DNA from: a virus
IMG/VR virus record: IMGVR_UViG_3300017960_000001
Coordinates: 1 to 64,000 of that record
Strand: one strand, 5' to 3'
DNA: 64,000 nucleotides
Part shown: positions 1,760 to 62,846 of the stretch, piece by piece
Position numbering within the stretch: position 1 is the stretch's first letter
How the letters are laid out: each line of letters starts with the position of its first letter
The notes under the pieces: model-generated
Database searches by the model: none
Told to the model about the DNA's origin: nothing
Seen by the model: only the letters and a program-made list of their open reading frames with translations
Program-made: the position numbers and the translations under genes

Positions 1760-1862
1760 AGAAAACGACAAGCACCTGTCTTATTTTGTTGACACGACCA
1801 GGCCAGCGGGTTACATTATCCTCATGATGACGCACACAACAAACACCGCGGAGGACAAAATG
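1760..1862 (+). promoter_or_regulatory. Conserved promoter/leader module, copy 1
   Basis: GAAAACGACA..TGTCTTATTTTG, TTGACA 1789, 17 nt, TACATT 1812, ATGATGAC 1824, GGAGG, ATG 1860. Confidence 0.85.
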
Positions 1863-2330
1863 ACCGACACGAAAACCCTGCACACCGTAAAGGTTACCTT
1901 CTCCAAATTCAACACCGCCCGCCGGGTGACGTTGGTCGGCCGTGACTTCGGGACGCGGGACGGGCTGTATGGTCCCTATCGGACGATCTACATGGACGGC
2001 CCCCGCGGCGCCGAGTACGGGATGCACATCTATTCGAATAACAGCTGGCGCGTCTACTCCGTCAAGTCGATGTCGATGAACGACATTGCCGGCGGCCGCG
2101 ACGCCGACACCGAGGTCGAGGTCACCGCCCGCCCCGCCACCGCGGACGAGGTCGCCGATTGCGCCCGGCTCGGATACGAGCTGAACCCCGACACGGACAC
2201 CGACACGGACGCTGACGCGGACACCACCGCCGACGCGGCGACCGACACCGACACCGACACGGACACCGGCGCCGACACCGACGCGGCGATCGTGCTGACT
2301 TGCTGGGCCGACACCGGAATGGAGGCATAG
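1824..2330 (+). CDS. Hypothetical protein with Asp-Thr repeat tail (alternative start 1860)
   Basis: ORF follows the promoter module; SD GGAGG before 1860. Confidence 0.75.
   Translation: MMTHTTNTAEDKMTDTKTLHTVKVTFSKFNTARRVTLVGRDFGTRDGLYGPYRTIYMDGPRGAEYGMHIYSNNSWRVYSVKSMSMNDIAGGRDADTEVEVTARPATADEVADCARLGYELNPDTDTDTDADADTTADAATDTDTDTDTGADTDAAIVLTCWADTGMEA
2190..2283 (+). repeat. Degenerate GACAC(C/G) hexamer tandem repeat encoding (DT)n
   Basis: gacacggacaccgacacg...gacaccgacaccgacacggacacc. Confidence 0.8.
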
Positions 2331-2334
2331 AACC

Positions 2335-2577
2335 ATGACGACGATCAACGACAAGGAAATCTACGAGCTTCGATTGGCCGAGGTTGTGGGCGACCGGGAC
2401 ACGGTCGGCAACGAGTACGAGCGGGGACAGTTCAACCCGTTTTTGTACGCCTTCGCACGCGGGGTCCCGATGGTCGAGGGGCACGCGATCCGCGACCAGC
2501 TGGAAATGCACGGGCGGTACATGGACCTCGACTTGTTCCCGGGCGTGATCCTGCTCGCCCGGGGCGGGAGGGCGTAA
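2335..2577 (+). CDS. Hypothetical protein
   Basis: GGAGG upstream, tight operon packing. Confidence 0.7.
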   Translation: MTTINDKEIYELRLAEVVGDRDTVGNEYERGQFNPFLYAFARGVPMVEGHAIRDQLEMHGRYMDLDLFPGVILLARGGRA

Positions 2578-2579
2578 CG

Positions 2580-3113
2580 ATGCCACGGAAAACCAAGGCC
2601 GAACGGTTCGGCGATCTAGCCGGATGGAAGGACGCGCGCCGGAACAAGCTGACCGGCGGTTGGACGTCCGTATACGAGTCCGCAAAGCAAGGGTTCGACG
2701 GCGAGGACAAGTACACCGTCATCTGCGAGGCGCACGGCGCGATCGTGTCGGTGCCGAGGTACAAGGACGCGCTATACATCGCCGGCGACGCGACCGAGTT
2801 CTGCGACGATTGCCGAGCGTTGGAGCGGATCGGTGCCGGCAACATGCGCCAGCTCGAGCGGACCGACGACCACGCTGAGAACGCCTACCGATCCCGGGCC
2901 GAGTACCCTTGCGCGGTGTGCGGACGGAAGGTTAAGCACCCGGCCGGGATGCTCCACTTGATCGCCGGCGGCGACACGGTTCTGCACCCCGACGCCGAGG
3001 ATCTATACGAGCCCGACGGCGGCGACCTCGGCCTGTACCCGGTCGGGAAAGACTGCGCGCGGGCGTGGGCCGGGTGGCTCCACCCGGCGACCGACGCCGA
3101 CGGCGAGGGCTGA
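2580..3113 (+). CDS. Hypothetical Zn-binding protein
   Basis: CEAH, CDDC, CAVC and VGKDC motifs; SD present. Confidence 0.7.
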   Translation: MPRKTKAERFGDLAGWKDARRNKLTGGWTSVYESAKQGFDGEDKYTVICEAHGAIVSVPRYKDALYIAGDATEFCDDCRALERIGAGNMRQLERTDDHAENAYRSRAEYPCAVCGRKVKHPAGMLHLIAGGDTVLHPDAEDLYEPDGGDLGLYPVGKDCARAWAGWLHPATDADGEG

Positions 3114-3135
3114 AGCCCAACCTTCAAGCGGGCCA

Positions 3136-3247
3136 GAAAAAAAACGACAGCGGTGTGTCTTTTTTTGTTGACGCGACGGACGCAGCATGCCAGTATTTAC
3201 TCATGATGACGCACACCAAAAACACCAACGCCGGGGAGGACAACATG
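3136..3247 (+). promoter_or_regulatory. Conserved promoter/leader module, copy 2
   Basis: TTGACG 3168, 17 nt, CAGTAT 3191, ATGATGAC 3203, GGAGG, ATG 3245. Confidence 0.85.
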
Positions 3248-3619
3248 GATAACGCGCACACCTCGAACCTCATCGACATCACCGACATGACCGCGGCCGA
3301 GCTGGACGCGCTCCTCGACACCGCCGCCGGCGACGACACCGACGACGACGACACCGACACCGACGCCGACCGCCCCGCCGGATTGACCGACCGGGTGTGG
3401 GCGGCGATCGTCGCGTCCAAGGCCGACCCGACTCTCTGCATCGAGGTCGACCACTGGTCGCGCATCGAACGAACCCAGCTGGCTAGCTACTACGGTTGGA
3501 AGCTGACCGACCCCGTAACGACCGATTGGATTTGGGGGAGCGACCGGGACACCGACACCGGCCCCGACTACGAGAAGATGATCCTCGCCCGGCAAGACCG
3601 CGAGGATTGGGGCTACTAA
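3203..3619 (+). CDS. Acidic hypothetical protein (alternative start 3245)
   Basis: Follows module 2; DDTDDDDTDTDAD tract. Confidence 0.75.
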   Translation: MMTHTKNTNAGEDNMDNAHTSNLIDITDMTAAELDALLDTAAGDDTDDDDTDTDADRPAGLTDRVWAAIVASKADPTLCIEVDHWSRIERTQLASYYGWKLTDPVTTDWIWGSDRDTDTGPDYEKMILARQDREDWGY

Positions 3620-3632
3620 AATGGAGGGCACC

Positions 3633-3956
3633 ATGACCAACGACACCAACGCATTCGAGGCCGCGATGACGATCTGGCTCGGCATCGCTCAGGAAATCAT
3701 GGAGACGGCGCACAACCGCGCGGGGTTCAGGTTCCCGTGTCCGTCCCTCTCCACGATGTACGGGAGGCGGTACGTGCGGATCGTCCGCGAGGATTCCTCG
3801 GGGAGCAGGTCCGCTCACGCCTTTGTCGACCGCACCAACGGCGACGTGATGAAGGCCGCCAGCTGGAAGGGTCCGGCTAAGAACTTCGCCCGGGGCAATA
3901 TCTACGACGCCGCCCGCCCGGGTGTCACCGAGTACGGGGCGCACACATGCTACTAA
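3633..3956 (+). CDS. Conserved phage hypothetical protein
   Basis: SAHAFVD..NGDVMKAASWKGPAK resembles a widespread phage family of unknown function; GGAGG before ATG 3633. Confidence 0.75.
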   Translation: MTNDTNAFEAAMTIWLGIAQEIMETAHNRAGFRFPCPSLSTMYGRRYVRIVREDSSGSRSAHAFVDRTNGDVMKAASWKGPAKNFARGNIYDAARPGVTEYGAHTCY

Positions 3957-3970
3957 TGGAGGGGGACAGG

Positions 3971-4381
3971 ATGCGCGTTCGAATCAGGTACAAGGTCACC
4001 GACCACGGCGAGCTTCTCGCCAACGGGTGCGAGACGGGTGTCCGGGGGTGGGCCCGCCGGGACCTCCGCGGGACGTCCGGCAACGCCAGGGTTGACGCCG
4101 CGTCGGCGGTGTTCCGCCGCGACCTGCTCCGCAAGGACGCCAGCTGCTACCCGGCGATCAAGCTCCCGCGGGGTGTCAACCCCGGCGACACGTGGGAGCA
4201 CGTGGCCGACCTCGAGGTGTTCGGGTGCGGGACGTGCCCGGGGTTGGACGGGCGCCCGGTCTACTACGAGGACCCCATCGAGGACTTCGCCGACGACGAC
4301 CCGCCCGAGACTCTGATCTGCTATCCCACGTGGGAAACGTTCCCGGTCACTCTCTCCTCGGACGACCTGCTCGATCGCTGA
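3971..4381 (+). CDS. Hypothetical protein
   Basis: GGAGGGGG SD, operon packing. Confidence 0.65.
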   Translation: MRVRIRYKVTDHGELLANGCETGVRGWARRDLRGTSGNARVDAASAVFRRDLLRKDASCYPAIKLPRGVNPGDTWEHVADLEVFGCGTCPGLDGRPVYYEDPIEDFADDDPPETLICYPTWETFPVTLSSDDLLDR

Positions 4382-4402
4382 ACCCCGCGCCGAGTATGGC
4401 GC

Positions 4403-4511
4403 AAAAAAATCAGCATACCCGGTGCTTATTTTTGTTGACGCGGCGGGCGAGGCGTGTCAGTATTATCTCATGATGACGGGCACCAACAACAACGACACGG
4501 GGCACACAATG
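4403..4511 (+). promoter_or_regulatory. Conserved promoter/leader module, copy 3
   Basis: TTGACG 4435, 17 nt, CAGTAT 4458, ATGATGAC 4470, second ATG 4509. Confidence 0.85.
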
Positions 4512-4763
4512 ACCAAAACTCAACGCAACTCTCTGGCAAGCCTCCGCGCGGTTGGTTCCGCGGACATCGTCGGGCAGGGCGGGATCTACGTTTACGACCC
4601 GGACCCCCGCGGCGACGGACCGTGCACGCCGGCCGCTACCATCGGGCACAACGTCGCCCGCGCTCTCGTCGACGCCGGGGTGGCCCACGTCGAAAAGAAC
4701 GGCCGCACCATCGAGCTTTGGAAAGTGTGCGGGGGCGGCGCGAAGCTGGTTCCGAATAACTAG
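4470..4763 (+). CDS. Hypothetical protein (alternative start 4509)
   Basis: Follows module 3. Confidence 0.7.
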   Translation: MMTGTNNNDTGHTMTKTQRNSLASLRAVGSADIVGQGGIYVYDPDPRGDGPCTPAATIGHNVARALVDAGVAHVEKNGRTIELWKVCGGGAKLVPNN

Positions 4764-4776
4764 GAGGGCGTAACCA

Positions 4777-5358
4777 ATGCCGACCACACCGAAAAAATAC
4801 CGCATCGCCACCGACCGCGCGACGGGGATCCGATACTACGTCCATTCGCTAGAGTTCCCGCGCGACGGTTCGCCGGTTCGCGCGCATCTATTCGGCCGGA
4901 CGACCCGCGCCAACGAGAACGTCAAGACCGGCGGCGCCCGCTGCTGGCACACCGGGATCTTCACGGTCGACCGGGACACCGTCGACGTGTCCGACCCGAC
5001 CCCCCGCACGTTCGAGCTTGCGTTGGAAATCTACGCCGAACAGAACGCCGACCACCACCGCCGGCGAGGGTTCGTTTTCTACCGCAAATCCAAGGACGGC
5101 GCGCGTAATATCCGGTTCGGGATCCGCCCCATGACCGAGGACGAATTGATCGACGCGGCCGCCGGCGCCGAGGATGCCGGCGACGTCGAGCTTGCCATGG
5201 ACCTGCTCGACATCGCCGACCGCCGGGCCAACGACGACGACGACGACACCACGGCCGAGGATGACGGCACGTGGACCGCCGACGGCATCACCGCCGACGA
5301 CCGGCTGAACCGGTTGTTCGACGCGGTGGCCGGTGGCAATTACGGGAAGCTTTTCTAG
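4777..5358 (+). CDS. Hypothetical protein with acidic C-terminus
   Basis: AGGAGG SD; typical codon use. Confidence 0.7.
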   Translation: MPTTPKKYRIATDRATGIRYYVHSLEFPRDGSPVRAHLFGRTTRANENVKTGGARCWHTGIFTVDRDTVDVSDPTPRTFELALEIYAEQNADHHRRRGFVFYRKSKDGARNIRFGIRPMTEDELIDAAAGAEDAGDVELAMDLLDIADRRANDDDDDTTAEDDGTWTADGITADDRLNRLFDAVAGGNYGKLF

Positions 5359-5399
5359 GACGACGGACACCGCCGACGGACGGCGGGACGGAGGGCAGC

Positions 5400-5564
5400 A
5401 TGCACGACCACGCGACGACGACGATCGAAACCTTCACCCGCGACAATCAGCTGGTGATCCGCTACGACATGACCAACCCGACCGCCACCGAGCAAGCGCA
5501 CGCGATCCTGCTCGCGGCGACGACCTCCGGCGAGTTCGGCGGGGTCGTGCTCGAGGGGGTGTAG
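5400..5564 (+). CDS. Small hypothetical protein
   Basis: GGAGG before ATG 5400. Confidence 0.55.
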   Translation: MHDHATTTIETFTRDNQLVIRYDMTNPTATEQAHAILLAATTSGEFGGVVLEGV

Positions 5565-5566
5565 CG

Positions 5567-5785
5567 GTGGGCCGATCACCACGGGCCCGGGCCGAGCACC
5601 TCGGCGGTACGAGGATCCGGTACTACTTCCCCTGCGGTCACTACCAAACGATCGACCACGGCAAGGGGCCGGTGGCGAAGCGCATCGGAGAGGCCGGGTG
5701 TCGATTCATCGTCAAGACCTGGGAGCGCGGCGGGGTGACCGCCGACTGCCCGACGTGCGAACGGAAAAGGAAGGGGGCCGCGTGA
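5567..5785 (+). CDS. Small Zn-ribbon protein
   Basis: CGH...CPTC motifs; GTG start just after the upstream stop. Confidence 0.55.
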   Translation: MGRSPRARAEHLGGTRIRYYFPCGHYQTIDHGKGPVAKRIGEAGCRFIVKTWERGGVTADCPTCERKRKGAA

Positions 5786-6561
5786 ACGACTACGAACAAC
5801 GACGGCAGGACCGGATCGATCGGTTGCGGGATCGGGTGAAGCGCAAGCGGGCCGAGTCCGCGGCGCAGCTCGACCGGGCGGGCAAGCTCGGCGACGCGAT
5901 CCCGATGGGGCAACCGATCCTCGTCGGCCACCACTCTCAACGCCGGCACGAACGGGACCTCGACCGGATCCAGAACGCGACCCGCCGCGGGGTGGACGCC
6001 GCCCGCGAGGCTGACGACCTCGAACGCCGGGCTCAGGCTGCCGAGAATAGCACCGCGATCAGTAGCGACGACCCCAACGCCCTCGTCGAGTTGCGGGCGA
6101 AGGTGGCGCGCTTGGAGGCTCGACGCGAGGACATGAAACGGACCAACCGGGAGTGGAGGCGGGGCGGGTGGGATGCCGTGTCCGGGTTGGACGACGACCA
6201 GAAAACCAAGATCAAGGAAACCCTCGCCCGGGTCGGCCGCGGCGACGGGCCGCCGTTCGCACCCTACCAGCTGACGAACCTCGGCGGGCGCATCCGACAG
6301 GCGAAAGCTCGTATCGTCCAGATGGAGACGCAACGGGCGATCCCGAGTAGCGAGTCCGAGGTCGGCGACGTGCGGATCGTGGACAACGCCGACGCGAACC
6401 GGGTGCAGCTGTTCCTGCCGGGGCGCCCGGGCCCGGACCTGAAAACGAGACTGAAGCGGAGCGGGTGGCGGTGGTCGCCGTCGCGGGGTTGCTGGCAACG
6501 CCACCGATCCACGGCCGCGCTGAACCAAGCACAAGCCCTCGCTGGCGCCTATTCCGATTGA
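5782..6561 (+). CDS. DUF3560-like protein
   Basis: IPMGQPILVGHHS, AISSDDPNA and GWRWSPSRGCWQR motifs recognised from this family. Confidence 0.8.
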   Translation: MNDYEQRRQDRIDRLRDRVKRKRAESAAQLDRAGKLGDAIPMGQPILVGHHSQRRHERDLDRIQNATRRGVDAAREADDLERRAQAAENSTAISSDDPNALVELRAKVARLEARREDMKRTNREWRRGGWDAVSGLDDDQKTKIKETLARVGRGDGPPFAPYQLTNLGGRIRQAKARIVQMETQRAIPSSESEVGDVRIVDNADANRVQLFLPGRPGPDLKTRLKRSGWRWSPSRGCWQRHRSTAALNQAQALAGAYSD

Positions 6562-6595
6562 TGGGGATGGACACACCAACCGATAGGAGGACCGG

Positions 6596-7354
6596 ATGCA
6601 GCTGGAACTGGAACGGCCGCTCGTCGTTTTCGATTTGGAAACGACCGGCGCCGACGTGAACAACGACAAGATCGTGGAGCTTGCGGCGGTGAAGCTCTCG
6701 CCGGGAGGCGGGCGGGACCAGCTTGTGCAGCGGTTCAACCCGGGCCGACGGATCCCGCCGGACGTGGTAGCGATCCACGGCATCACCAACGCCGACGTGA
6801 AGGACTGCCCTCTCTTCAGGGAGGAGGCCGCCCGGGTGCACCGGTTCTTCAAGGGGGCCGACCTCGGCGGGTTCAACGCGGACCGGTTCGACATCCCGCT
6901 CCTACAGAACGAGCTATTGCGAGCGGGCCTGAGCCTCGACCTGACCGTCTGCATTGTCGACGCATGCCGGATATACCACCAACGCGAGCCCCGGGACCTC
7001 GCGGCCGCGGTGCGGTTCTACACGGGCGGCGAGCACGTCCACCACCACGCCGCCCTCGCTGACGTCGAGGCTACGTTGGATGTGTTGCGCGGCCAGCTCG
7101 AGCAATACGCCGACCTGCCCCGCTCGGTGCAGGGGATCCACGACGCGACCCGCGACCCGGACGCGGTCGACTTCGCGGGCAAGCTGCGATGGGAGGGGGA
7201 CGCGGTGGTGCTGACCTTCGGCAAGCACAAGGGGACCCCGTTGCAACGGGTCGATCAAGGCTATCTCATCTGGGCGAAGCGTAACGGGGTGTTCGGGCCG
7301 GACGTGGTGCCGGTGATCAATTCCGCGCTCGAAGGCAGATACCCGAAACGCTAG
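6596..7354 (+). CDS. DEDDh 3'-5' exonuclease (DNA Pol III epsilon / ExoX-like)
   Basis: FDLETTG, GFNADRFD, HAALADV motifs; C-terminal FGKHKG..YLIW domain. Confidence 0.9.
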   Translation: MQLELERPLVVFDLETTGADVNNDKIVELAAVKLSPGGGRDQLVQRFNPGRRIPPDVVAIHGITNADVKDCPLFREEAARVHRFFKGADLGGFNADRFDIPLLQNELLRAGLSLDLTVCIVDACRIYHQREPRDLAAAVRFYTGGEHVHHHAALADVEATLDVLRGQLEQYADLPRSVQGIHDATRDPDAVDFAGKLRWEGDAVVLTFGKHKGTPLQRVDQGYLIWAKRNGVFGPDVVPVINSALEGRYPKR

Positions 7355-7423
7355 CCCGCGGCGCCCGCCCTCTCAAGCTCTGATCCGGCCGCCGATCGCT
7401 GCGGCCCGCTCTCCATGCGACCA

Positions 7424-7500
7424 GAAAAAATCAGCAGGACGTGTGCTTATTTTTATTGACACGGTGGGCCCCACGTGCCAGAATTTACTCATGATGACAC
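7424..7500 (+). promoter_or_regulatory. Conserved promoter module, copy 4
   Basis: TTGACA 7456, 17 nt, CAGAAT 7479, ATGATGAC 7491; no second SD-ATG follows. Confidence 0.85.
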
Positions 7501-7513
7501 GGACACAACACAC

Positions 7514-7598
7514 GGCGACGCGCACCGAAAAGGGGACCGGCTGTCCCGCCCGCACGGGTGAGTGCTGCTTCGGCAAGGGTTCGACTCCCTCGTTCGCC
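7514..7598 (+). ncRNA. Candidate tRNA-like structured ncRNA
   Basis: Closing stem GGCGA-CG/CG-T-TCGCC, T-arm AGGG-TTCGACT-CCCT, cUUCGg hairpin and two further hairpins; no canonical D or anticodon arm, no CCA. Confidence 0.55.
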
Positions 7599-7732
7599 TC
7601 TCAGTTTGTTTCGCGGTTGGTGTTGGCGGTGGCAATCACGGCCGGGGGCAATGCGGCTCTCGACCGGACGGCCGACTACCACGCCCGAACCCAGACCACG
7701 ACCCGCGACCACGTCGCGGGCGGGAGGTAGCC

Positions 7733-8170
7733 ATGCACCGGAACGGCGACGAAGTGATCATCCGAACCAAGAACCACGCCCGCGGGATCGTGGTCGACGC
7801 CAACCCCGCGATCGACCGCTACACGGTCCGCCCCTACGGTGACGGGTTGGTGTTGGTAGCCGGCCACGAGTTGGACCCGGTCGACGACGACGGTTGCCCG
7901 TGCTGCGGCGCCCCGCCGACCAAGTGGGATCCCGACGTCGACACGATGGGGACGATCGTCTATTGTTCCAAGTGCGGGGCGATGTTCACGGCCCCTGGCG
8001 AGACGATCTACCGCGGCGATTCCTACAACTACGTTTCCCCCATGATGTCGAGACGGACGGACATGGACGGGGCGAAGTATTTCGATCTGATGGTGCTGGG
8101 CTCGAACGGGGTTGAGCGGCGTCACGGGTGGTTCGACCCGGACACCAAGCTGATCCTGCAAATCGGTTAG
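7733..8170 (+). CDS. Hypothetical protein with Zn ribbon
   Basis: CPCCG...CSKCG; GGAGG SD. Confidence 0.7.
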   Translation: MHRNGDEVIIRTKNHARGIVVDANPAIDRYTVRPYGDGLVLVAGHELDPVDDDGCPCCGAPPTKWDPDVDTMGTIVYCSKCGAMFTAPGETIYRGDSYNYVSPMMSRRTDMDGAKYFDLMVLGSNGVERRHGWFDPDTKLILQIG

Positions 8171-8185
8171 AAAACGGAGGGCACG

Positions 8186-8515
8186 ATGGTAGTCTACACG
8201 GACAAGAATATCCACGACGACCCCTGCGGCGGCCGCCTCTGCGACGAATGTGAGATCGCGGGTTGCCCCGGCAACGGCGGCGACGACGCGCCCCCGGTCG
8301 ACCCGGCCCGCTCGAGGGACAACGCCCGGACGGCCGCGCGGGAGTTCGGGCGCAAGCTCGGCCTCCGCGTCACGCCCGACGACGTGTCCAAGTTCGGCGG
8401 GTGGTGGGTCTACCGCCGGGTTCAGGACGGACGGCACTTCGAGTGGTGCGCCCCCTACGGGGCGGTCAGGTTGATCAACGGCACCGGCTACCCGGACGAG
8501 GTGGGAAGCTGCTAA
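8186..8515 (+). CDS. Hypothetical protein
   Basis: GGAGG SD; Cys cluster. Confidence 0.65.
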   Translation: MVVYTDKNIHDDPCGGRLCDECEIAGCPGNGGDDAPPVDPARSRDNARTAAREFGRKLGLRVTPDDVSKFGGWWVYRRVQDGRHFEWCAPYGAVRLINGTGYPDEVGSC

Positions 8516-8534
8516 CGGCGCCAGCTGGCGCAAC

Positions 8535-9062
8535 ATGGAGGGCAAGATGCTCGAACTGAAATGGACGGACAACGGCGGATCGAGTCACACGGGGACCGCG
8601 GCGCGCGTCACGGTCGAAGCGTACAAGGATCCCGAGGGCTGGCACGCCGACGTGATCGTCACCGACGGCAGGACCGAGGACAAGTGGCCGAAATGGATCT
8701 ACGGGTTCAAGTCTCTCCGCGCGGTCAAGGATCACTGCGGCGCCGCGCTCCCGTCGACCCTCGGCGAGGACGACGTCCCGACCGACGGCGGCGTGGACGA
8801 GATGGGAGACGTTGCGAGCGGCACCTCGAACCCGCCCCCGACGTCACCGGCCGAGAACGCCGGCGGCCCGTCCGGGCTGGCTCTCACCGGCGCCGACGAG
8901 GTCACCGCCACGATGGCAGACGGGACGAAGATCCACATCGCCCTCTCTCCCAGCGGCGGCGAGCTTATCGTCGCCACCCGCCCGGGTAGCGCGACCGGCC
9001 TAGCGCTGTACCCTTCGCCGTCGTTCCGCACCCTTCGCCTGAAGCCGACGCGCGACTGCTAG
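8535..9062 (+). CDS. Hypothetical protein (likely start 8547)
   Basis: GGAGG between the two ATGs. Confidence 0.65.
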   Translation: MEGKMLELKWTDNGGSSHTGTAARVTVEAYKDPEGWHADVIVTDGRTEDKWPKWIYGFKSLRAVKDHCGAALPSTLGEDDVPTDGGVDEMGDVASGTSNPPPTSPAENAGGPSGLALTGADEVTATMADGTKIHIALSPSGGELIVATRPGSATGLALYPSPSFRTLRLKPTRDC

Positions 9063-9103
9063 CTCGCGCCGTCCTCTCTCCCCCGCGCCAAGCCCGGCCT
9101 AAA

Positions 9104-9206
9104 GAAAAAACGACAGCCACTCGCTTATTTTTGTTGACACGACCGGCGAGGCATGCAATACTGAGGCATGATGAACGGACACAACAACACAACGGAGGAC
9201 ACAATG
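9104..9206 (+). promoter_or_regulatory. Conserved promoter/leader module, copy 5
   Basis: TTGACA 9134, 17 nt, AATACT 9157, ATGATGAAC 9168, GGAGG, ATG 9204. Confidence 0.8.
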
Positions 9207-9911
9207 ACCGACGCCAATAGCAACACCAACGCCGCCGACAACAAGCTGGTAACCGCGGAACTGTACCGCTACGGATGGGGACGCAACAACATCGCCGACG
9301 AGCACCGCGACGCCGAGAAAAAGCGGAAGGCCGCCGTCGACACCATGCGGAAGCTGGCGAAGGCGGCCGACCTGCTCAAGACCATCGGCCACGACATCGA
9401 CGACGACCCCACGCCCGACGGCATGGACCACAACGAGTCGATGAAGGTTGCCCGGGCGATCGACAACCTCCGCTCCACGTTGGGCGACATGGAGAACCGT
9501 TGCGCCGGCACCGCCCCGGTCGTGGTGAAGCGCATCGACCGGAAGGTCCGTTGCCGGGTGTGGCGGAAGCGGGGCACCTACGGACGCGGCGCCGAAATCA
9601 AGGCCGCCGTGCTCGCCATCGTCGGCGACCGCGCTCTGGTCAGCTGGAACGAGTCCAACAAGCACGGCAAGGCGGACCGCTACTTCGTAGAGGTTCCGGC
9701 GCTCTACGACGTGTCCTCCTACGACGCCGACGACGCCAAATATGAGTTGTCCGTGTCCGTCACCGACAAGGATTGCGCCGCGTGGATCGAAACCGAATGG
9801 ACCTACCGCGCCAAGTCCACCCGCCGCCTCCCCGACGTGTGGCTGCACGCCGTCCCGACCCGGACCAAGAAATCGATCGCCGACCTCCGCGCCGCGTCCG
9901 ACAACAACTAG
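9168..9911 (+). CDS. Hypothetical protein (alternative start 9204)
   Basis: Follows module 5. Confidence 0.75.
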   Translation: MMNGHNNTTEDTMTDANSNTNAADNKLVTAELYRYGWGRNNIADEHRDAEKKRKAAVDTMRKLAKAADLLKTIGHDIDDDPTPDGMDHNESMKVARAIDNLRSTLGDMENRCAGTAPVVVKRIDRKVRCRVWRKRGTYGRGAEIKAAVLAIVGDRALVSWNESNKHGKADRYFVEVPALYDVSSYDADDAKYELSVSVTDKDCAAWIETEWTYRAKSTRRLPDVWLHAVPTRTKKSIADLRAASDNN

Positions 9912-9970
9912 CCCGACGCCGGCGCCCGCCGGCACCGCCCCCCCCCCGACACCGACTAACCGCACAACGT

Positions 9971-9999
9971 TTGACGCGACCGCCCGCCGGCGGTAGGAT
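9971..9999 (+). promoter_or_regulatory. Sigma70-like promoter lacking the conserved module flanks
   Basis: TTGACG, 17 nt, TAGGAT upstream of SD-ATG 10034. Confidence 0.6.
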
Positions 10000-10033
10000 G
10001 GACCAAGAAGCTGACCCCAACGTGGAGGGAACC

Positions 10034-10354
10034 ATGCCGGCAAAGAAGAAGGACGGGCCCGCCGAGGTCTACGTTTCCAAGTTCGCGCTGACCCGCGGGA
10101 TCGAGAAATACAAAGGCGAGGTCACCAACTCAGGCGAGGGTTTCAAGTTCCAACCGGACTGGGCCAACCGCGAGTTGTTCGTGCTCAAACCGGATTGGTC
10201 GACGACGAAGAAGGCCGCGGTCGCCAACGCCGAGGACCTTCGCAAAGAGGCCCTCGCCAATCTCGCCGACCAGCTGAAAAGGGTGGGCGACAACCCGGCC
10301 CGGGTAGAGATGATCAAGGCCAAGCAGAAAGAAATCAAAGGTCTGAAGTTCTAA
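10034..10354 (+). CDS. Hypothetical basic protein
   Basis: GGAGG SD before MPAKKKDG. Confidence 0.7.
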   Translation: MPAKKKDGPAEVYVSKFALTRGIEKYKGEVTNSGEGFKFQPDWANRELFVLKPDWSTTKKAAVANAEDLRKEALANLADQLKRVGDNPARVEMIKAKQKEIKGLKF

Positions 10355-10405
10355 CCGCCCGCCCCCAACCTCTCGGGGCGACGGCATCGCCAGGAAGGGG
10401 ACCCC

Positions 10406-10654
10406 ATGAAGAAGGAAAGCTGCCCGCGTTGCGGCGACGAGCTACGGGTCGAACACGCGGACAACCACCCCGGCGCAGACTACGGCAAGAAGGAATCAGT
10501 CTTTCTGCTCCGGGTCCGGTGCCGCGACCGGTCCCGCGGCCCGTCTCGGTGCTATGGGTACTTCGCCGAGGCGGTCGGTCGTAGCAGGTCGGACGCGGTC
10601 CACCGGCTGCGGCTCGGCCTCGAACGGGAACGCAAGCGGAGGGCTGCGGCGTGA
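10406..10654 (+). CDS. Small Zn-ribbon protein
   Basis: CPRCG...C...C; overlaps next start. Confidence 0.6.
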   Translation: MKKESCPRCGDELRVEHADNHPGADYGKKESVFLLRVRCRDRSRGPSRCYGYFAEAVGRSRSDAVHRLRLGLERERKRRAAA

Positions 10655-11232
10655 CCCCGGCCGACCAACGGATCGCCGACCTGCGCGACGGCATCCGGGC
10701 CGAGGCTGAGGCCCTACGGGATCGGGCGGTGAAGCTCGACGAGGCGGCCGACCACCTCGACGTCGCTCTCACGATCGCGGTCGACGATACGACCGCACAC
10801 TTACCCGAACCGAAACCGAAGCCGGAACCGACGGCCGGGGGCAAGCGAAAGCGTACCAGACGCAGCAAGAGCCCCGCCTCCCGCCGCACCTCTCCCGCGA
10901 CCGAAGCCCCGGGCAAGAAGAAGAAGCCGCAAGGCGGGCACGCTGGCGTCACTCAGCTAGCGATCCTCGCGCACCTCGGCGATTGCGTCGGAGCGTGGAG
11001 GCGGCCGGCTGACATCGGCCGGGCAATCGACCGGCCCGGGGCGCTCGTCGCCGGGGCCCTGCGCCGGATGCACAACCGGGGCGAACCGCGGTTGCAGCTG
11101 CAACGGCTCGGACCCCGGTCTTGCCAGTACCGGCTGGCCCCGGAGGGAGAGGAGTCGGACCCCGACCCGGAGCCGGAGGCGGTGCCCCCCCCATCGGGCG
11201 CCGCCGAAACGAAACCGAGGGCCACGGCCTGA
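10651..11232 (+). CDS. Putative winged-helix DNA-binding protein
   Basis: Coiled-coil N-terminus, basic linker, wHTH-like AILAHL..RPADIGRAI..VAGALRRM..YRL. Confidence 0.5.
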   Translation: MTPADQRIADLRDGIRAEAEALRDRAVKLDEAADHLDVALTIAVDDTTAHLPEPKPKPEPTAGGKRKRTRRSKSPASRRTSPATEAPGKKKKPQGGHAGVTQLAILAHLGDCVGAWRRPADIGRAIDRPGALVAGALRRMHNRGEPRLQLQRLGPRSCQYRLAPEGEESDPDPEPEAVPPPSGAAETKPRATA

Positions 11233-11305
11233 GGACGTCGACCCCGACGGCACCCGCACCACCGACGAACTCCCCAAGCCCGGCCGAACGGGACGACACC
11301 CGGCG

Positions 11306-11626
11306 GTGACGGGGTTCAGTGTGAGCGGGCCGCCAGCTGGCTCTGAGGCGAGGCGGACGCGGGGCCGGGCGCCGACACCCGACGCCGACATCGCGGCGAA
11401 ACTTGAGGATCTGGGACGTACTGTGTTGGACATGAACAAGGGGGCGTGGCACACGGCGGCGAGTCTGCTCGACGGAGCCGAGGCCCGGGGGTTGATCCCG
11501 GCGGGGTTCGCCGACGCATACCACCGCAAGCTCGAGGGGGCACTGGACGCCGCGGCCGACGCGGGTAGAATCGAACGAGAGTCAGATAACGAGGGGCACC
11601 GGATTCTATACCGGGTCCCGGCATAG
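11306..11626 (+). CDS. Hypothetical protein, possible winged helix
   Basis: ORF fills the gap on the coding strand; start uncertain. Confidence 0.45.
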   Translation: MTGFSVSGPPAGSEARRTRGRAPTPDADIAAKLEDLGRTVLDMNKGAWHTAASLLDGAEARGLIPAGFADAYHRKLEGALDAAADAGRIERESDNEGHRILYRVPA

Positions 11627-11635
11627 GAGGACACC

Positions 11636-12433
11636 GTGGCAGCTGGAAGCGGCAAGGCTAAGAGAAGCGGTAGCAAGAAACCTGCGAAGAAGAAGGTGGC
11701 GAAAAAGAAGCCGGCCGGCAAGGCGCCGGCGGCGAAGGGTGACGCCCCGATCCTCGCAGACGAGATCCCGGTGTTCTGCGCTCACGACGAGGTGGTGGCG
11801 ACGTCCTCGCTCGTCCCGAATCCTCGCAACCCGAACACACATCCCGACGTGCAGATCGACCTGCTCTCGAAGGTGATCCTGAATCAAGGCTGGCGGGCGC
11901 CGATCACGGTGTCGACCCGGTCCGGGTTCGTGGTCCGCGGACACGGCCGGCTCGCGGCCGCGATCAGGCTCAACGCCGAGTTGGTACCGATCGATCGGCA
12001 GGACTACGCCGACGAAGCGAGCGAGTGGGCCGACCTCGTCGCCGACAACCGGATCGCCGAGCTTGCCGAGATGGACGCGCCGGCGCTGAAGGATCTGCTC
12101 GTCGAGATGGACACCGGCGCCTTCGACATGGACCTGACCGGGTTCGATGCGACGGCGATGGAGGACCTCATGACCATGACCGAGCCCGGGTTCGGCGAGC
12201 CCTACGGTGGGACGTCGACGGGGCAGGACGGGCAGGGGGTCACGTCGCCGTGGGCCGCGGTCGGATCGCGGGACACCGTCGCGGTGAAGATCGGGCTGGT
12301 CGAGACGTCCCTGCCCGGGGCGTTGGTGAAACAGCTGGGCGACTACATGGAGGGCAAGCGGGCGGACGTCGGGCACCGCTACCACGAAACGCTTGAGAAC
12401 GTGGTGCGCGCCGGGCTGGAGAACGTCGAATGA
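11636..12433 (+). CDS. ParB/Srx-like N-terminal domain protein
   Basis: LVPNPRNPNTH..QI..L..GWRAPI..VRGHGRLAAA..LVADNRIAELA..LTGFD, the ParB-like domain usually fused to phage DNA methylases. Confidence 0.88.
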   Translation: MAAGSGKAKRSGSKKPAKKKVAKKKPAGKAPAAKGDAPILADEIPVFCAHDEVVATSSLVPNPRNPNTHPDVQIDLLSKVILNQGWRAPITVSTRSGFVVRGHGRLAAAIRLNAELVPIDRQDYADEASEWADLVADNRIAELAEMDAPALKDLLVEMDTGAFDMDLTGFDATAMEDLMTMTEPGFGEPYGGTSTGQDGQGVTSPWAAVGSRDTVAVKIGLVETSLPGALVKQLGDYMEGKRADVGHRYHETLENVVRAGLENVE

Positions 12434-13731
12434 AGATCGGAATCGTCGACACGAACTACCCGAAACAAGAGCACCAAGGGCTCGCGGCTACGTGGCTCAG
12501 GTGGGAACTCGATCAGGCGGTGGCCCGCGGCGCCGCCGTCGAGCTGGTCGAGCCGCAGGGCGCCGAAGTCCTGCTCCTCACGACGTCGTCACCCGAGGGG
12601 GTGGCGATGGTGCGGCGCGCGATCAAGGAACACTGGAACGAGACTGCGGTCCGTATCCTCGGCGGTGGCGGGTGCACGTCGCCGCCGGTGTTCGACGATC
12701 TGGTCGAGGCGATCTGCGTCGGCGAGGGTGCACACTTTGTCCGTACACTTTTCAACGACGGACTCGACGCCGCACTAGCTCTCCCCGAGACGTGGATCCC
12801 GGGCGACGATCGGAGGGTCGTCCCCAACCTTGACTTCCCTTGGGAACTGCCTCCGCTACGCCACCCCGACGGGACGATCCGGGTGTTCGGATCGCGGGGC
12901 TGCAAGAATCGCTGCTTGTTCTGTCAGACCGGGTGGGCCAGCACCTACCGGGTCAACCCCCGGCCGAAGATCCTGCAAGCTCAGGTCGACAAGCTGCACC
13001 GGGACGGACACCGGATCGCGGTGATCACGAACGACGGCGCCGAGGCGGGCGTGCACCTCGAGGGCCAGCAGTCTTTCGTGTCCGCGATGTTCACGCACCT
13101 CAAACGCATGATGCCGATCTCTCGGAAGCGTTTCCGGTCGGTGCGGATCGGAGTCGAGGGGGTGTCCGAGCGGATCCGGCGGGCGGTACACAAGCCGGTC
13201 GGCAACGAGGAACTCCTCCGCATGACCTGGGACTTGCTCGTCGCCGGTGTCGGTGTGCGGTGGTTCTTTGTCACCGGCCTACCCGCCGAGACTCTCGACG
13301 ACTACCTCGAATTGCAGCACGTCCTACACCAACTGCGGAAACTTCCGAAGGGCGTGGTCATGATGAACTTCCACGCCTATATTCCTTGCCCCGCCACCCC
13401 GCTCTGCATTCCCCCGCTCGACGACACCTATTTCGAGAGGTATGACGAGCTGATCAAGGATTGGTTTTTCTCCGGGCCGGGGTTCACCCGGCACGTTCAG
13501 CTGGTCGGGCCGGCTAAGTACCCGACACGCTTGAAGAAAGCACGCGAGTCCATGGCGGCGAGCGCGGCCGAACTCCGGCGCGGGTGGTGGAACCACGATC
13601 CGAAGTCGTGGCGGATCGAATTCCCGGGCCACCCGGACAATCTCCGCAGGCTGGCTGCTCGCTACCTCAAACGGATGGGGGCCCCGTACCCGCCCGGGAT
13701 CTTGAAGGATGCCAGCGACGGCGACGAATAG
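12430..13731 (+). CDS. B12-binding-domain radical SAM enzyme
   Basis: SRGCKNRCLFC (CxxxCxxC); N-terminal Rossmann-like ILGGGGCTSP..ICVGEG; GVEGVSERIR, GLPAET and PCPATPL core motifs. Confidence 0.88.
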   Translation: MKIGIVDTNYPKQEHQGLAATWLRWELDQAVARGAAVELVEPQGAEVLLLTTSSPEGVAMVRRAIKEHWNETAVRILGGGGCTSPPVFDDLVEAICVGEGAHFVRTLFNDGLDAALALPETWIPGDDRRVVPNLDFPWELPPLRHPDGTIRVFGSRGCKNRCLFCQTGWASTYRVNPRPKILQAQVDKLHRDGHRIAVITNDGAEAGVHLEGQQSFVSAMFTHLKRMMPISRKRFRSVRIGVEGVSERIRRAVHKPVGNEELLRMTWDLLVAGVGVRWFFVTGLPAETLDDYLELQHVLHQLRKLPKGVVMMNFHAYIPCPATPLCIPPLDDTYFERYDELIKDWFFSGPGFTRHVQLVGPAKYPTRLKKARESMAASAAELRRGWWNHDPKSWRIEFPGHPDNLRRLAARYLKRMGAPYPPGILKDASDGDE

Positions 13732-15277: not shown

Positions 15278-15280
15278 TCC

Positions 15281-17212: not shown

Positions 17213-17217
17213 CACAG

Positions 17218-18004: not shown

Positions 18005-18006
18005 CC

Positions 18007-44226: not shown

Positions 44227-44229
44227 GCT

Positions 44230-44787: not shown

Positions 44788-44790
44788 GCG

Positions 44791-46544: not shown

Positions 46545-46547
46545 GCG

Positions 46548-47135: not shown

Positions 47136-47144
47136 GGTAGCGAC

Positions 47145-48302: not shown

Positions 48303-48303
48303 C

Positions 48304-53177: not shown

Positions 53178-53180
53178 CTC

Positions 53181-53885: not shown

Positions 53886-53887
53886 CG

Positions 53888-54358: not shown

Positions 54359-54361
54359 ACC

Positions 54362-56650: not shown

Positions 56651-56663
56651 GGGAGAGCACGGC

Positions 56664-59099: not shown

Positions 59100-59114
59100 C
59101 GGAGGAACGGCGAC

Positions 59115-59660: not shown

Positions 59661-59665
59661 GGGAT

Positions 59666-60055: not shown

Positions 60056-60235
60056 GACTCTCCGCGGGCCCGGCGACCGGGTCCACTTCTCCACCCCCGC
60101 ACGGCAACGCCACGGGGACGCACACCGGCTCGGTAGGGTCGACCCGCGTCCTTGCCCCCGTCACAGAGAACGGCCCTCAGATTGGCGTACAGGCTGCCTC
60201 AGAGCGAGGTGGCCGGCACCCCGCCACACGCCCAG

Positions 60236-60336
60236 GAAAAACGACAGGCACCTGCTTATTTTTGTTGACACGGCCGGCGGACCGCGTTACATTCCTACAC
60301 ATGATGACGCACACACAAACCCCGGAGGATGCCATG
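60236..60336 (+). promoter_or_regulatory. Conserved promoter/leader module, copy 6
   Basis: TTGACA 60265, 17 nt, TACATT 60288, ATGATGAC 60301, GGAGG, ATG 60334. Confidence 0.85.
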
Positions 60337-60534
60337 GCCGACGACATCAATCACGTTGAGCTGGAAATGAAAGCCCGCAACTGCACCGACGCCGAACTGA
60401 TATTCATGCGGGACGACGCCGGCGCCGCGTGGCGCGCGATGCCGGACAATCCCAAGGCCAAATTCTACCGGTGGGAAATGTGCTACGCCTGCAACGAAAT
60501 CGCCCGCCGCGGGTTGTCCGCGGACGGTTGCTAG
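60301..60534 (+). CDS. Small hypothetical protein (alternative start 60334)
   Basis: Follows module 6. Confidence 0.7.
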   Translation: MMTHTQTPEDAMADDINHVELEMKARNCTDAELIFMRDDAGAAWRAMPDNPKAKFYRWEMCYACNEIARRGLSADGC

Positions 60535-60546
60535 AAAGGGGGCGCC

Positions 60547-60852
60547 ATGCGCGCACCGATCGATTCCGTCGCCCGTTTCTGTAACGCCCTGCTGGACCGC
60601 GTCGTTTCCGCGGTCCTAATCGCCGGGCCCGACACCCGGATCGGCCGGGCGCGCGTCGCGCTCGGCAACGACCAGCTGGCAGCGATCACGTCGGACGTGA
60701 TGCGCCCGCTGCTCAAGGACGCGCTCCACGGCGACCGCTACGCCGAGGACCGGGCCGCCGTGGTCGACGGGATCTACGGGGCCGAGGCTGCGTTCGCCGC
60801 GGCGATCATCGCCGACGCGGTCAAGGGGATCGGCGACCGCTGCCCCGCGTAG
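60547..60852 (+). CDS. Hypothetical protein
   Basis: AAGGGGG SD. Confidence 0.65.
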   Translation: MRAPIDSVARFCNALLDRVVSAVLIAGPDTRIGRARVALGNDQLAAITSDVMRPLLKDALHGDRYAEDRAAVVDGIYGAEAAFAAAIIADAVKGIGDRCPA

Positions 60853-60865
60853 AGCCTACCCTTCA

Positions 60866-60972
60866 GAAAAAACGACAGGCACCGTATTCTTTTTGTTGAC
60901 ACGGCGGGCGGGGCGTGCAATGATGTTCTCATGATGACGGACACACAAACCAACGCAACGGAGGAAAAAATG
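60866..60972 (+). promoter_or_regulatory. Conserved promoter/leader module, copy 7
   Basis: TTGACA 60896, 17 nt, AATGAT 60919, ATGATGAC 60931, GGAGG, ATG 60970. Confidence 0.85.
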
Positions 60973-61488
60973 CCGACCCTGACCAACGACGAAGCCGCCC
61001 TGGCAATCACCGCGATCGAGCACTACATCAACACGCTTCACCACATGGCGGGGGACACCAACCCCGACCACGCCAAGGCGTTGCACGCCCGCGCCGACGA
61101 GTTGCGGGGGGTCCACCGCTCGCTGCTGAAGTCCGACGAGCCGGGGACCGACGCGGACACCGACGCCGACACGAACACCGCCCCCGACGAGGACGCGATG
61201 AAGGACGCCGCCGCGGCCGAGTTCGGGATCACCCGGACCAGCCTCGATGTGCTGCTCGACTACGCCGGCGACGCCGGAAATTGGAGCGGGTCGCCGTTGG
61301 TCGGTGGCAACGTCGGCGGGACGAAAGAAGAACGGGGCAACCTGACCCAACTGAAAAAGGCCGGGCTGATTTCGACGTGGGTGGAGGAGGGGAATTCGTG
61401 GGTGGACTTCACCCCGAAGGCCGCCGACGCGATCCGCGCCGCCGGCGACACCAAGCTGGCCGACTACATCGCCACCGTTGCCCGCTAG
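60931..61488 (+). CDS. Hypothetical protein with DT linker and winged-helix-like C-terminus (alternative start 60970)
   Basis: ERGNLTQLKKAGLI..WVDFTPK. Confidence 0.7.
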   Translation: MMTDTQTNATEEKMPTLTNDEAALAITAIEHYINTLHHMAGDTNPDHAKALHARADELRGVHRSLLKSDEPGTDADTDADTNTAPDEDAMKDAAAAEFGITRTSLDVLLDYAGDAGNWSGSPLVGGNVGGTKEERGNLTQLKKAGLISTWVEEGNSWVDFTPKAADAIRAAGDTKLADYIATVAR

Positions 61489-61497
61489 GAGGACACG

Positions 61498-62151
61498 ATG
61501 CGAAACGCAATAGGGAACAAGTACGAAGCGACCAAGGACGAACCCGCCACGGCGATCGCCAAGCGGATCCGCACGGACATCCGAGCCGCGGTCCGCGCCG
61601 GCGATCTCCCGGCCGAGCTTCGCGTGTCGGTCCGCACCGACCGGAGCACCTACCACGAATCGATCAGGATGGAGGTCACCGCCTACGACGGGCCGATCTG
61701 CAACCGGGTGTGGTTCGCCCGCAAGATGACCGGCGAGCACTTGCTGCTCAACGATTGCAACCGGCACGGGGTCGAGGCCGACGCGCTCCTCGCCAAGCTC
61801 ACCGCGATCGGCGACGCCTACAACTACGACAAGTCCGAGCCGGAAACGGACTACTGGAACACGCGCTTTTTCCAGACGGTGGATTACGCCCTCGCGCTCA
61901 CCGAGGACGACTACATCGCCGCCGCTCACGACGTCGCCGGGTGGACGTTGGGGGTGGAGAAAACGGCGCCCCGTTACGACGACGACGACCTGCTCTGGAC
62001 GGTGTTCGCCGAGCTACCCGGGGAGGTGATCCCGGGCAAGCCGGCGCCGGTCAAGCTGGCACTGGCGACGACCCCCGAGGCGGCCGACGAAACCGCCGAC
62101 TCGCTGGCCCGTCTGCCCCAGCTTGCGCTCGAGGGGGACCTGCCATGGTAA
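61498..62151 (+). CDS. Large-polyvalent-protein domain (LPD29-like) protein
   Basis: AKRIR..I..SVRT..SI..AYNYDKS.PETDYWNTRF. Confidence 0.6.
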   Translation: MRNAIGNKYEATKDEPATAIAKRIRTDIRAAVRAGDLPAELRVSVRTDRSTYHESIRMEVTAYDGPICNRVWFARKMTGEHLLLNDCNRHGVEADALLAKLTAIGDAYNYDKSEPETDYWNTRFFQTVDYALALTEDDYIAAAHDVAGWTLGVEKTAPRYDDDDLLWTVFAELPGEVIPGKPAPVKLALATTPEAADETADSLARLPQLALEGDLPW

Positions 62152-62363
62152 CCGGTGATTGGATCGTCGAACGGGTCGATCGGACGGACGACATTCGCTA
62201 CCCGTTCAGGGTGATCGGCAGGTTGCGCGAAACCGGCGAGCTGTTCCGGTGGTGCGTCCCGTCGGTCGCCTCGAAACGCTACGACCTAAGGCTCGCTGAG
62301 ATGGACCAGAAAACGAGGGCGGCGGTGGACGTCGCCCGCTATCAACCGGAGGCTCAACAATGA
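62145..62363 (+). CDS. Small hypothetical protein
   Basis: GAGGGGG SD; overlaps both neighbours. Confidence 0.55.
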   Translation: MVTGDWIVERVDRTDDIRYPFRVIGRLRETGELFRWCVPSVASKRYDLRLAEMDQKTRAAVDVARYQPEAQQ

Positions 62364-62731
62364 AGCGGATTCTCTTGGTGGACGACAACGACCTCGTCCG
62401 GCGGTCCCTAGCCCGGGTGCTGTCCAGCACCGGCGTCGAGGTCGACACGGCGGACGACCTCACGAAAGCGGTGCTGCTCATGTGCGTCGCCGCCGACCTC
62501 TCTCCCTACGACGCAGTGATCTCCGACATGGACCTCGGCAACGGCCACGACGCCGGCGGGCTCGCCGTGCTCGAGGTGGCGCGTCGGATCCTGCCCGGCG
62601 CCCGCCGGGTGCTGGTTTCCGGGTCGACCTTCGAGGAGGGGCCGGTGCGGGAGGCGATCGACACCGGCGCCTGTGATCGGTTCCTCCCCAAACCATGCCG
62701 GGCGGACGACTTGCTGAAGGCCCTACTCTAA
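62360..62731 (+). CDS. Stand-alone response regulator receiver (CheY-like)
   Basis: ILLVDD, DAVISD (phosphoacceptor), VLVSG, FLPKP. Confidence 0.9.
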   Translation: MKRILLVDDNDLVRRSLARVLSSTGVEVDTADDLTKAVLLMCVAADLSPYDAVISDMDLGNGHDAGGLAVLEVARRILPGARRVLVSGSTFEEGPVREAIDTGACDRFLPKPCRADDLLKALL

Positions 62732-62748
62732 GCGGCCCACCGACCTCG

Positions 62749-62846
62749 CAAAATTTATTGCTTATTTTTGTTGACACGGCCGGTGCTGCGTGCCAAGATT
62801 TACTCATGATGACGGACACACACACAACGGAGGGCAACTAACCATG
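62749..62846 (+). promoter_or_regulatory. Conserved promoter/leader module, copy 8
   Basis: TTGACA 62771, 17 nt, CAAGAT 62794, ATGATGAC 62806; leader ORF stops at TAA 62839-62841; ATG 62844. Confidence 0.85.

Follow-up and report, generated by a model that had tools for sequence, protein, structure and literature searches.

Phages of the T4, T5 and SPO1 types carry multiple early promoters that are near-consensus for the host sigma factor, are preceded by UP-like or curved, phased A/T tracts, and drive small early genes. A repeated promoter module is likewise found in an uncultured, high-GC phage of the lytic type, whose 94,119-bp viral record in the IMG/VR database (IMGVR_UViG_3300017960_000001, here called G000) is rated complete; the window that we analysed is the first 64 kb (positions 1 to 64,000) of this record. 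Here, the conserved sequence also continues past the predicted transcription start (+1) into a CA-rich stretch that resembles coding DNA, and the copies within a genome are homogenised over the whole unit. Among described systems, the nearest is the PeSL (promoter-early stem-loop) of T4-type phages (Arbiol et al. 2010, PMC2839356; Comeau et al. 2014, PMC4122927), a conserved intergenic element of ~100 bp in which a sigma-70 consensus early promoter is preceded by an AT-rich region and followed, at the end of the element, by a Shine-Dalgarno (SD) sequence and a start codon. Like the modules, PeSLs are present in many same-sense copies next to ORFans in a plastic part of the genome, and they have been proposed to supply the homology for cassette shuffling.

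The modules differ from PeSLs in four respects. They belong to an unrelated, high-GC phage lineage, in which the terminase TerL is at most 28% identical to that of any cultured phage; they have a weak hairpin extended by A/T tracts in place of a convincing, stable GC-rich terminator stem-loop; an ATGATG at their predicted 5' end shares the frame of the SD-led start, a feature absent from descriptions of PeSLs; and, whereas repeat-bounded indels and mini-circles are features of PeSLs, the modules are known from sequence alone. Most known cases of repeated early promoters and of PeSL-type cassettes are in T4-like phages that infect Gram-negative bacteria, and here a comparable architecture is present in an unrelated family of uncultured phages. 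What is new relative to those systems is the systematically conserved start codon at the predicted 5' end, in frame with the SD-led start. Our best explanation, which we regard as likely taken as a whole, is that the modules are a family of promoters that combine a leaderless with an SD-led start in a unit that evolves in concert.

Start codons at or near the 5' end of an mRNA have two kinds of precedent. The E. coli mRNAs with an upstream AUG (uAUG) at the 5' terminus are scattered single cases with 5' open reading frames (ORFs) of varying length and of unknown function (Beck, Fleming and Janssen 2016, PMC4965119). In them, as predicted for the modules, a translatable AUG stands at the 5' end of an mRNA that also bears a leader and an SD sequence; the modules differ in that this arrangement is fixed in a repeated element, shares the frame of the main start as a rule, and recurs in several phage lineages. 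The second precedent is the leaderless expression of the Deinococcus-Thermus group, in which the -10 box adjoins the ORF (PMC12340547), and leaderless mRNAs make up a high share of the total in actinobacteria and Deinococcus (PMC9031893). As predicted for the modules, the -10 box of Deinococcus-Thermus leaderless promoters is placed so that transcription starts at the start codon. Unlike the modules, many of these promoters are without a strong -35 box, and a second, SD-led start is absent from them.

The repeat unit is ~110-150 bp long and has the same order of elements in all 12 of its copies in G000. With positions counted from the A of ATGATG (+1), the first element is an A-tract (about -65 to -57), which is followed by a 3-4-bp stem of variable sequence and by a T-tract at -45 to -36. 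Next come a -35 hexamer that reads TTGACA or TTGACG (12 of 12 copies), a 17-nt spacer ending in TGn, with the TG one base before the -10 hexamer in 10 of the 12 copies, and a -10 hexamer of the form NANNNT (A-11/T-7), again in every copy. The -35 hexamer and ATGATG are 35 nt apart in 10 copies and 34 or 36 nt apart in the other two; likewise, 6 nt separate the -10 hexamer from ATGATG in 10 copies, as against 5 or 7 nt in the remaining two, and the discriminator is usually TTACTC. Downstream lie an invariant ATGATGA, a T-free CA-rich stretch and, usually, an SD sequence and an ATG. The columns without variation among the eight copies of the window comprise the T-tract, TTGAC, the G of the upstream TG, A-11, CATGATGA and two G's of the SD sequence. 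An earlier note on this DNA had held that conservation extends beyond the two hexamers, and the upstream A/T tracts and the invariant ATGATGA downstream bear this out.

That note had listed eight copies, all of which are present where it placed them, on the + strand. Copy 1 occupies positions 1760 to 1862 (-35 hexamer starting at 1789, -10 hexamer TACATT, ATGATG at 1824, SD-led ATG at 1860), with an in-frame offset of 36 nt between the two starts. The two starts are also in frame in copy 2 (3136 to 3247; -35 at 3168, -10 CAGTAT, ATGATG at 3203, SD-led ATG at 3245, offset 42), copy 5 (9104 to 9206; -35 at 9134, -10 AATACT, ATGATGA at 9168, SD-led ATG at 9204, offset 36), copy 6 (60236 to 60336; -35 at 60265, ATGATG at 60301, SD-led ATG at 60334, offset 33) and copy 7 (60866 to 60972; -35 at 60896, ATGATG at 60931, SD-led ATG at 60970, offset 39). 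The consensus set out in the note holds for the overall architecture and fails in detail at two copies. Copy 3 (4403 to 4511; -35 at 4435, ATGATG at 4470, ATG at 4509, in-frame offset 39) has only the weak SD sequence GGGGC, and copy 4 (7424 to 7513; -35 at 7456, -10 CAGAAT with TG, ATGATG at 7491) has no GGAGG-ATG and is followed by a tRNA-like RNA. Copy 8 (62749 to 62846; -35 at 62771, ATGATG at 62806, ATG at 62844) has an offset of 38 and is the sole out-of-frame case.

Over the 94,119-bp genome, the pattern TTGACRCG-N20-32-CATGATGA gave 12 forward matches, none on the reverse strand and none in a control in which the sequence was read backwards. The four further copies lie beyond the window, at 65358, 76738, 86251 and 88197. 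The motif model and full-genome scan that the note had proposed, carried out here with an nhmmer profile, recovered the same 12 copies and no others, 11 of them with E-values of 7e-32 to 5e-25 and copy 76738 with 7e-14. A consensus promoter scan of positions 1-12000 yielded 7 sites against 1.0 expected from shuffled sequences.

Judged by their sequence, these repeats are a family of strong promoters of the housekeeping-sigma (sigma-70) type. The perfect or near-perfect -35 box, the 17-nt spacer, the extended -10 TG, the A-11/T-7 present in 12 of 12 copies, the upstream A/T tracts, and the single orientation in which each copy heads a block of genes in the non-structural arm uphold the suggestion of a co-regulated promoter family. 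No recognisable sigma factor is encoded in G000, and the promoters are probably early and served by unmodified host RNA polymerase. The phased A/T tracts at about -65 to -36 resemble an UP element or curved DNA, and each copy would begin a transcription unit in the non-structural arm, with 1-6 genes that are mostly ORFans. An archaeal promoter with a TATA box at about -27 was rejected, since the region is GC-rich by inspection and the phage encodes an Amidase_2 endolysin and a DnaB helicase, which point to a bacterial host.

The conservation could also be read as a set of binding sites for a phage repressor or activator, the candidates being either a dyad that covers the -35 box and the spacer or else the TCATGA at +1. 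The -10 box frequently begins with C instead of T, which produces TGACA...TG(T/C)CA arms that are perfect in 7 of the 8 module copies of a related genome, G001; the discriminator is genome-specific (TTACTC in G000 and GTAACC in G001); and a protein with a weak helix-turn-helix match is encoded at 607-1293. Yet the symmetric arms overlap bases that the promoter itself needs, the candidate sites are without an assigned regulator, and the longest inverted arms across the -35 box and spacer are no better than those in shuffled spacers (mean 4.45 against 4.06), which led us to reject the dyad. We consider such an operator regulon quite unlikely.

The reading of the hairpin upstream of the -35 box as a terminator gained no statistical support from stability, covariation or a terminator scan. 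The stability is ordinary in G000, with RNAfold z-scores from -1.9 to +2.4. Hairpin cells are paired in 82% of cases, against 52-60% when the partner is slid, and the covariation was matched by 113 of 500 shuffles. The element is pairable mostly because the A-tract faces the T-tract, with a core stem of 3-4 bp, and in the consensus scan of positions 1-12000 no terminator-like site was found on the + strand at any of the five modules there.

Predicted transcription starts place the conserved ATGATG at the very 5' end of the message. The motif begins ~7 nt past the -10 box, directly after a C, which is the textbook position for a start site; transcription is thus predicted to begin at the first base of ATGATG, an A at +1 that has a C before it at -1. 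The same geometry with different filler sequence is found in the 8 module copies of G001, a 98-kb genome whose TerL is 49% identical to that of G000. A search of metagenome contigs with the exact pattern added two short true matches, L085 and L087, which carry one copy each of a third variant with an in-frame offset of 60; a further match, contig L086, was set aside as a chance match, as was L013, the sole match to the exact pattern in IMG/VR. Every copy in G001, L085 and L087 has ATGATGA after a C at about the seventh base past the -10 box.

ATGATG and the SD-led ATG share a reading frame in 9 of 10 copies in G000, in 6 of 6 in G001 and in the single copy of L085, which amounts to 16 of 17 copies in three lineages. 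The in-frame offsets are 33, 36, 39, 42 and 60 nt, indicating that changes in length came in multiples of three. The probability of at least 16 of 17 copies being in frame, at 1/3 each, is 2.7e-7 by our own arithmetic, a value that overstates the significance because the copies are paralogues. GC content at the three codon positions of the 16 in-frame intervals is 0.37/0.52/0.75, which is like that of coding DNA of this genome, and T is almost absent. The two exceptional copies of the window share an arrangement of their own: the ATGATG at 62806 opens an 11-codon upstream ORF that ends with TAA 2 nt before the ATG at 62844, and the ORF from the ATGATG at 7491 stays open to a TAG at 7728-7730, 2 nt before the next gene's ATG at 7733, so that both end in the form stop-CC-ATG. 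Between the 11-codon ORF of copy 62806 and a 436-amino-acid gene that starts at 62953 lies a small ORF (62844-62945) for an extremely basic, K/R-rich protein of 33 amino acids.

One copy of G001, at 45469, has lost both the SD sequence and the ATG. The protein that it heads has homologues in other assemblies (P0004 and P0005, 38-39% identical), and the alignment with these begins at LGVSDEV..C..CGKKNLKRTV. Because this conserved region precedes the sole alternative start, TTG25, ATGATG is the only canonical in-frame start of the protein, which the gene caller had shortened to 83 amino acids (P0003 compared with the full ORF). The earlier note had described the stretch after the promoter as a CA-rich leader. 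Given the position of ATGATG at the predicted +1, its shared frame with the SD-led ATG, the coding-like periodicity, and the start of the 45469 protein, this stretch is probably translated instead.

According to this explanation, the mRNA would begin with AUGAUG and be translated in the leaderless mode, of which the lambda cI mRNA is an example. The T-free, CA-rich stretch that follows would act as a downstream enhancer, and an SD sequence and a second in-frame AUG would be met 11-20 codons further on. Ribosomes starting by either route would make the same protein, with or without a short N-terminal extension rich in T, N, D and E. Where the frame is not shared, the 5' ORF stops 2 nt before the next ATG, which suggests translational coupling, and one copy would drive a tRNA-like RNA in place of a protein. 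Two published findings bear on these steps. The 5'-terminal AUGs of SD-leadered mRNAs bind 70S ribosomes (PMC4965119), and CA repeats downstream of the start codon boost both leaderless and leadered translation, as summarised in the passage of PMC9031893 that cites Martin-Farmer and Janssen 1999.

Several points weigh against this explanation. The start site and the early timing are predictions from sequence, as are the leaderless translation and the recombination role discussed below. A good SD sequence precedes most main ATGs, and the canonical route of initiation might be enough without a second one. The copy that heads an RNA has also retained ATGATGA, which points to at least some role at the level of transcription. 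The copies are paralogues whose triplet-like AAC/ACA repeats could slip in threes, which weakens the frame statistics, and the near absence of T from the stretch makes its missing stop codons uninformative.

Some of these same points would suit a plain promoter with an untranslated leader, in which transcription starts at or near ATGATG, only the SD-led ATG is used, ATGATGAC is an initially transcribed sequence or a regulator site, and the CA tract is an unstructured 5' untranslated region that aids loading of the 30S subunit. Most main ATGs have a strong GGAGG 5-8 nt upstream, ATGATGA persists in the copy with the tRNA-like RNA, gene callers start the 66-amino-acid protein behind copy 6 at its SD-led ATG, and the frame relation could have been inherited from one ancestor and kept by triplet-repeat slippage. 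An untranslated leader does not, however, account readily for 16 of 17 copies being in frame over five lengths and three lineages, for the coding-like GC at third codon positions, for the stop-CC-ATG arrangement of the exceptions, or for the conserved N-terminal region of the 45469 protein, which has no SD-led start upstream. We consider it rather unlikely.

Returning to the dual start, a broader form of the explanation is that this clade of uncultured high-GC phages has built a leaderless AUGAUG with its CA enhancer and an in-frame, SD-led AUG into a copyable promoter cassette that evolves in concert, so that early ORFans could be expressed even if canonical initiation were impaired, while the same cassette would provide homology for the shuffling of ORFans. 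We put this forward tentatively, at a little under even confidence. If the in-frame 5'-terminal start is confirmed, the module would be a natural, compact promoter-plus-translation part for high-GC hosts and a model for phages that secure early expression by two initiation routes. It would also be a marker for correcting gene starts in such genomes, where gene callers have truncated at least one protein.

The distribution of the modules along the genome follows its division into two parts. The + strand carries all real genes of G000. Packaging and structural genes, including the portal gene, occupy ~11.6-60 kb; among these are TerL (13709-15277), the capsid gene (23830-24765) and the tape measure gene (41677-44226), all on the + strand, and this 48-kb block contains 0 module copies. 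The terminal overlap ("terminal repeat") of the assembly is only 22 bp, which indicates that it is effectively circular or permuted. Thus, the non-structural arm of ~43 kb is continuous from 60.2 kb through the record end to 9.2 kb, and all 12 modules lie inside it. The two clusters that had been described as flanking the structural module are therefore an artefact of the cut point of the assembly, the 12 copies being spread along one continuous arm.

The genes behind the modules are, as had been claimed for the blocks of 1-6 small genes headed by each copy, unrelated to one another. Most are ORFans with no Pfam match, the exceptions being genes for DUF3560, an RNase_T exonuclease, a receiver domain, an AAA_33/zeta-like kinase and DUF7717. 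A role of the cassette genes in host takeover or anti-defence, as the earlier note had proposed, is conjecture. The receiver is a stand-alone response-regulator domain (Pfam Response_reg, 2e-13) encoded in a cassette at 62360-62731, and its G001 homologue is 32% identical. Copy 6 heads a 66-amino-acid protein that is 70% identical to the product of a module-headed gene of G001. Only ~13 genes of the non-structural arm are common to G000 and G001. Four module-headed units are homologous between the two genomes (G000/G001 positions 1789/37200, 60265/38759, 7456/39980 and 3168/42925); their order differs, and one is shifted by ~35 kb.

Within a genome, the modules show concerted evolution: their mean identity is 0.55 in G000 and 0.75 in G001, as compared with 0.48 between the two genomes. 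The modules of the four orthologous units share only 44-50% identity and, in the order of the cross-genome pairs, come 2nd to 8th of 8, which is no closer than random, whereas each G000 module has 66-75% identity to a paralogue in its own genome; the nearest paralogue of copy 2 (3136 to 3247), for instance, is copy 86251, at 75% identity. Pairs of copies in G001 are 98-99% identical over ~115-120 bp with sharp edges and unrelated flanks, and copy 86251 of G000 is a chimera of two subtypes with its junction in the hairpin loop. The simplest cause of such a pattern, we infer, is copying or conversion between modules. A unit of ~115-150 bp kept uniform in this way would be a plausible substrate for homologous recombination and reshuffling of cassettes, as in the T4-type PeSLs, and its concerted evolution bears on the turnover of ORFan-rich regions of phage genomes.

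The earlier note had proposed that the repeats act as recombination joints without an integrase. The second part of this proposal is confirmed, as no match to PF00589 (tyrosine recombinase) or PF00239 (serine recombinase) was found in G000. The first part has indirect support from the concerted evolution, the near-identical pairs of G001 and the reordered units; on the other hand, homology between G000 and G001 is limited to single genes, and modules are not the only places where breakpoints fall. Many are located between genes, since the conserved genes are isolated singles with unrelated neighbours within the same unit, and this argues against an exclusive role for the modules.

These observations also bear on the view that the main evolutionary role of the module is that of a PeSL-like mobile regulatory cassette, providing ~100 bp of homology for deleting, inserting or swapping ORFan cassettes, which is compatible with our best explanation. 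The concerted evolution, the near-identical and sharply bounded copies with unrelated flanks, the one chimeric copy (86251), the four reordered units with one displaced by ~35 kb, the ORFan-rich surroundings, an SbcC/Rad50-like ATPase and an RNase_T exonuclease encoded by the phage, and the T4-type precedent (PMC2839356, PMC4122927) all agree with it. Against it, many breakpoints between G000 and G001 fall between genes and not at modules, the genomes compared, G000 and G001, are distant relatives, and selection by a genome-specific factor could partly mimic the concerted pattern. We regard this as the main role only as a possibility, and a somewhat doubtful one. The ATPase in question (AAA_23/SMC_N) is encoded at 77865-79439 of G000 (L088:13865-15439) and the RNase_T-family exonuclease at 6596-7354 of the window; the two are candidates that could act in recombination on the repeats.

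A repeated, sharply bounded element of ~115 bp between unrelated genes might also be expected of site-specific recombination sites or of a miniature transposable element, similar to integron attC sites or to MITEs. The modules are strictly in one orientation, however, their core has the layout of a textbook promoter whose distance from the start codons is fixed, and the genome encodes no tyrosine or serine recombinase. Moreover, when the copies and their flanks were aligned in pairs, neither inverted repeats at the termini nor duplicated target sites were noticed, though no search was dedicated to them. This alternative is very improbable. In several copies, the similarity runs ~30 nt further upstream, into the stop-codon context of the preceding gene (GCTGAAGCCC). 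Such sites were seen at 3108-3117 and 4376-4385 of the window and at 86191-86200 and about 88140 of G000, and GCTGAAGCCC is preceded twice by GATC, giving a C-terminal Asp-Arg. The joint may thus include the 3' end of the upstream cassette.

Outside G000, G001 and the two short contigs, the module was sought in further relatives. Structural genes are syntenic across five related genomes, and neither G002-G004 nor the other TerL relatives have a comparable module; the family is thus specific to one lineage. An identical copy of the 66-amino-acid protein (P0001, window 60334-60534) is encoded on 8 contigs, the longest of 95,107 bp, which indicates that near-identical strains of the phage exist in public assemblies, and P0002, which is present on four further contigs, is carried in IMG/VR by G001 only. 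A generic probe, TTGAC-N15-TG-N12-CATGATGA, matched L132, L174 and L110/L133 in IMG/VR (GC 35-42%), which are unrelated low-GC phage contigs with 2-3 copies each of a sigma-70-type promoter that has CATGATGA at the same fixed spacing after the extended -10 TG; most other matches were single chance hits. Several of the promoters in these contigs lead straight into ORFs or in-frame, SD-led ATGs. These cases hint that the arrangement may be more widespread.

The phage itself is distant from those in culture. Megablast against GenBank phages found no close relative of G000, and its capsid, TerL and DnaB proteins are at most 33% identical to those of cultured phages. Placement of the host by way of bacterial genomes was rejected as unreliable, the sole matches being phage contigs binned in a Sphingomonadales metagenome-assembled genome (MAG) and a Thermotogota MAG. 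Many proteins contain acidic Asp-Thr/Asp-Ala repeat tracts (window positions 2180-2290, 3300-3380, 21600-21800, 23400-23470 and 61130-61190), and several related contigs seem to derive from a single cluster of sample numbers. The two observations combined may indicate a halophilic host.

Two copies of the module are followed by putative RNA elements. The slot of the first gene behind copy 4 is occupied by the tRNA-like RNA (7514 to 7598, + strand; 85 nt), which has an acceptor-like stem, two internal hairpins and a canonical T-arm (GGTTCGACTCC). That this copy heads an RNA and not a protein indicates that the module is first of all the head of a transcription unit. The element is ~85% identical in nucleotide sequence to L056:1556-1644 of G001, behind copy 39980 (85-90 nt), and the neighbouring proteins are far more diverged. 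The Rfam tmRNA model matches it in the acceptor stem and T-arm only, at 18.8 bits and below threshold, and RNAalifold finds three compensatory pairs, from two sequences only. ARAGORN called no tRNA at this element or elsewhere in the window, and Rfam at gathering thresholds gave no match in the window. Behind copy 76738 (G000 76773-76927, L010:1536-1690), an ORF of 19 codons is accompanied by a structured leader of ~100 nt with a very stable predicted fold (-67 kcal/mol, z -3.8), and the exact complement of the 5' AUGAUGACGG is found ~90 nt downstream; this arrangement may be an attenuator or riboregulator.

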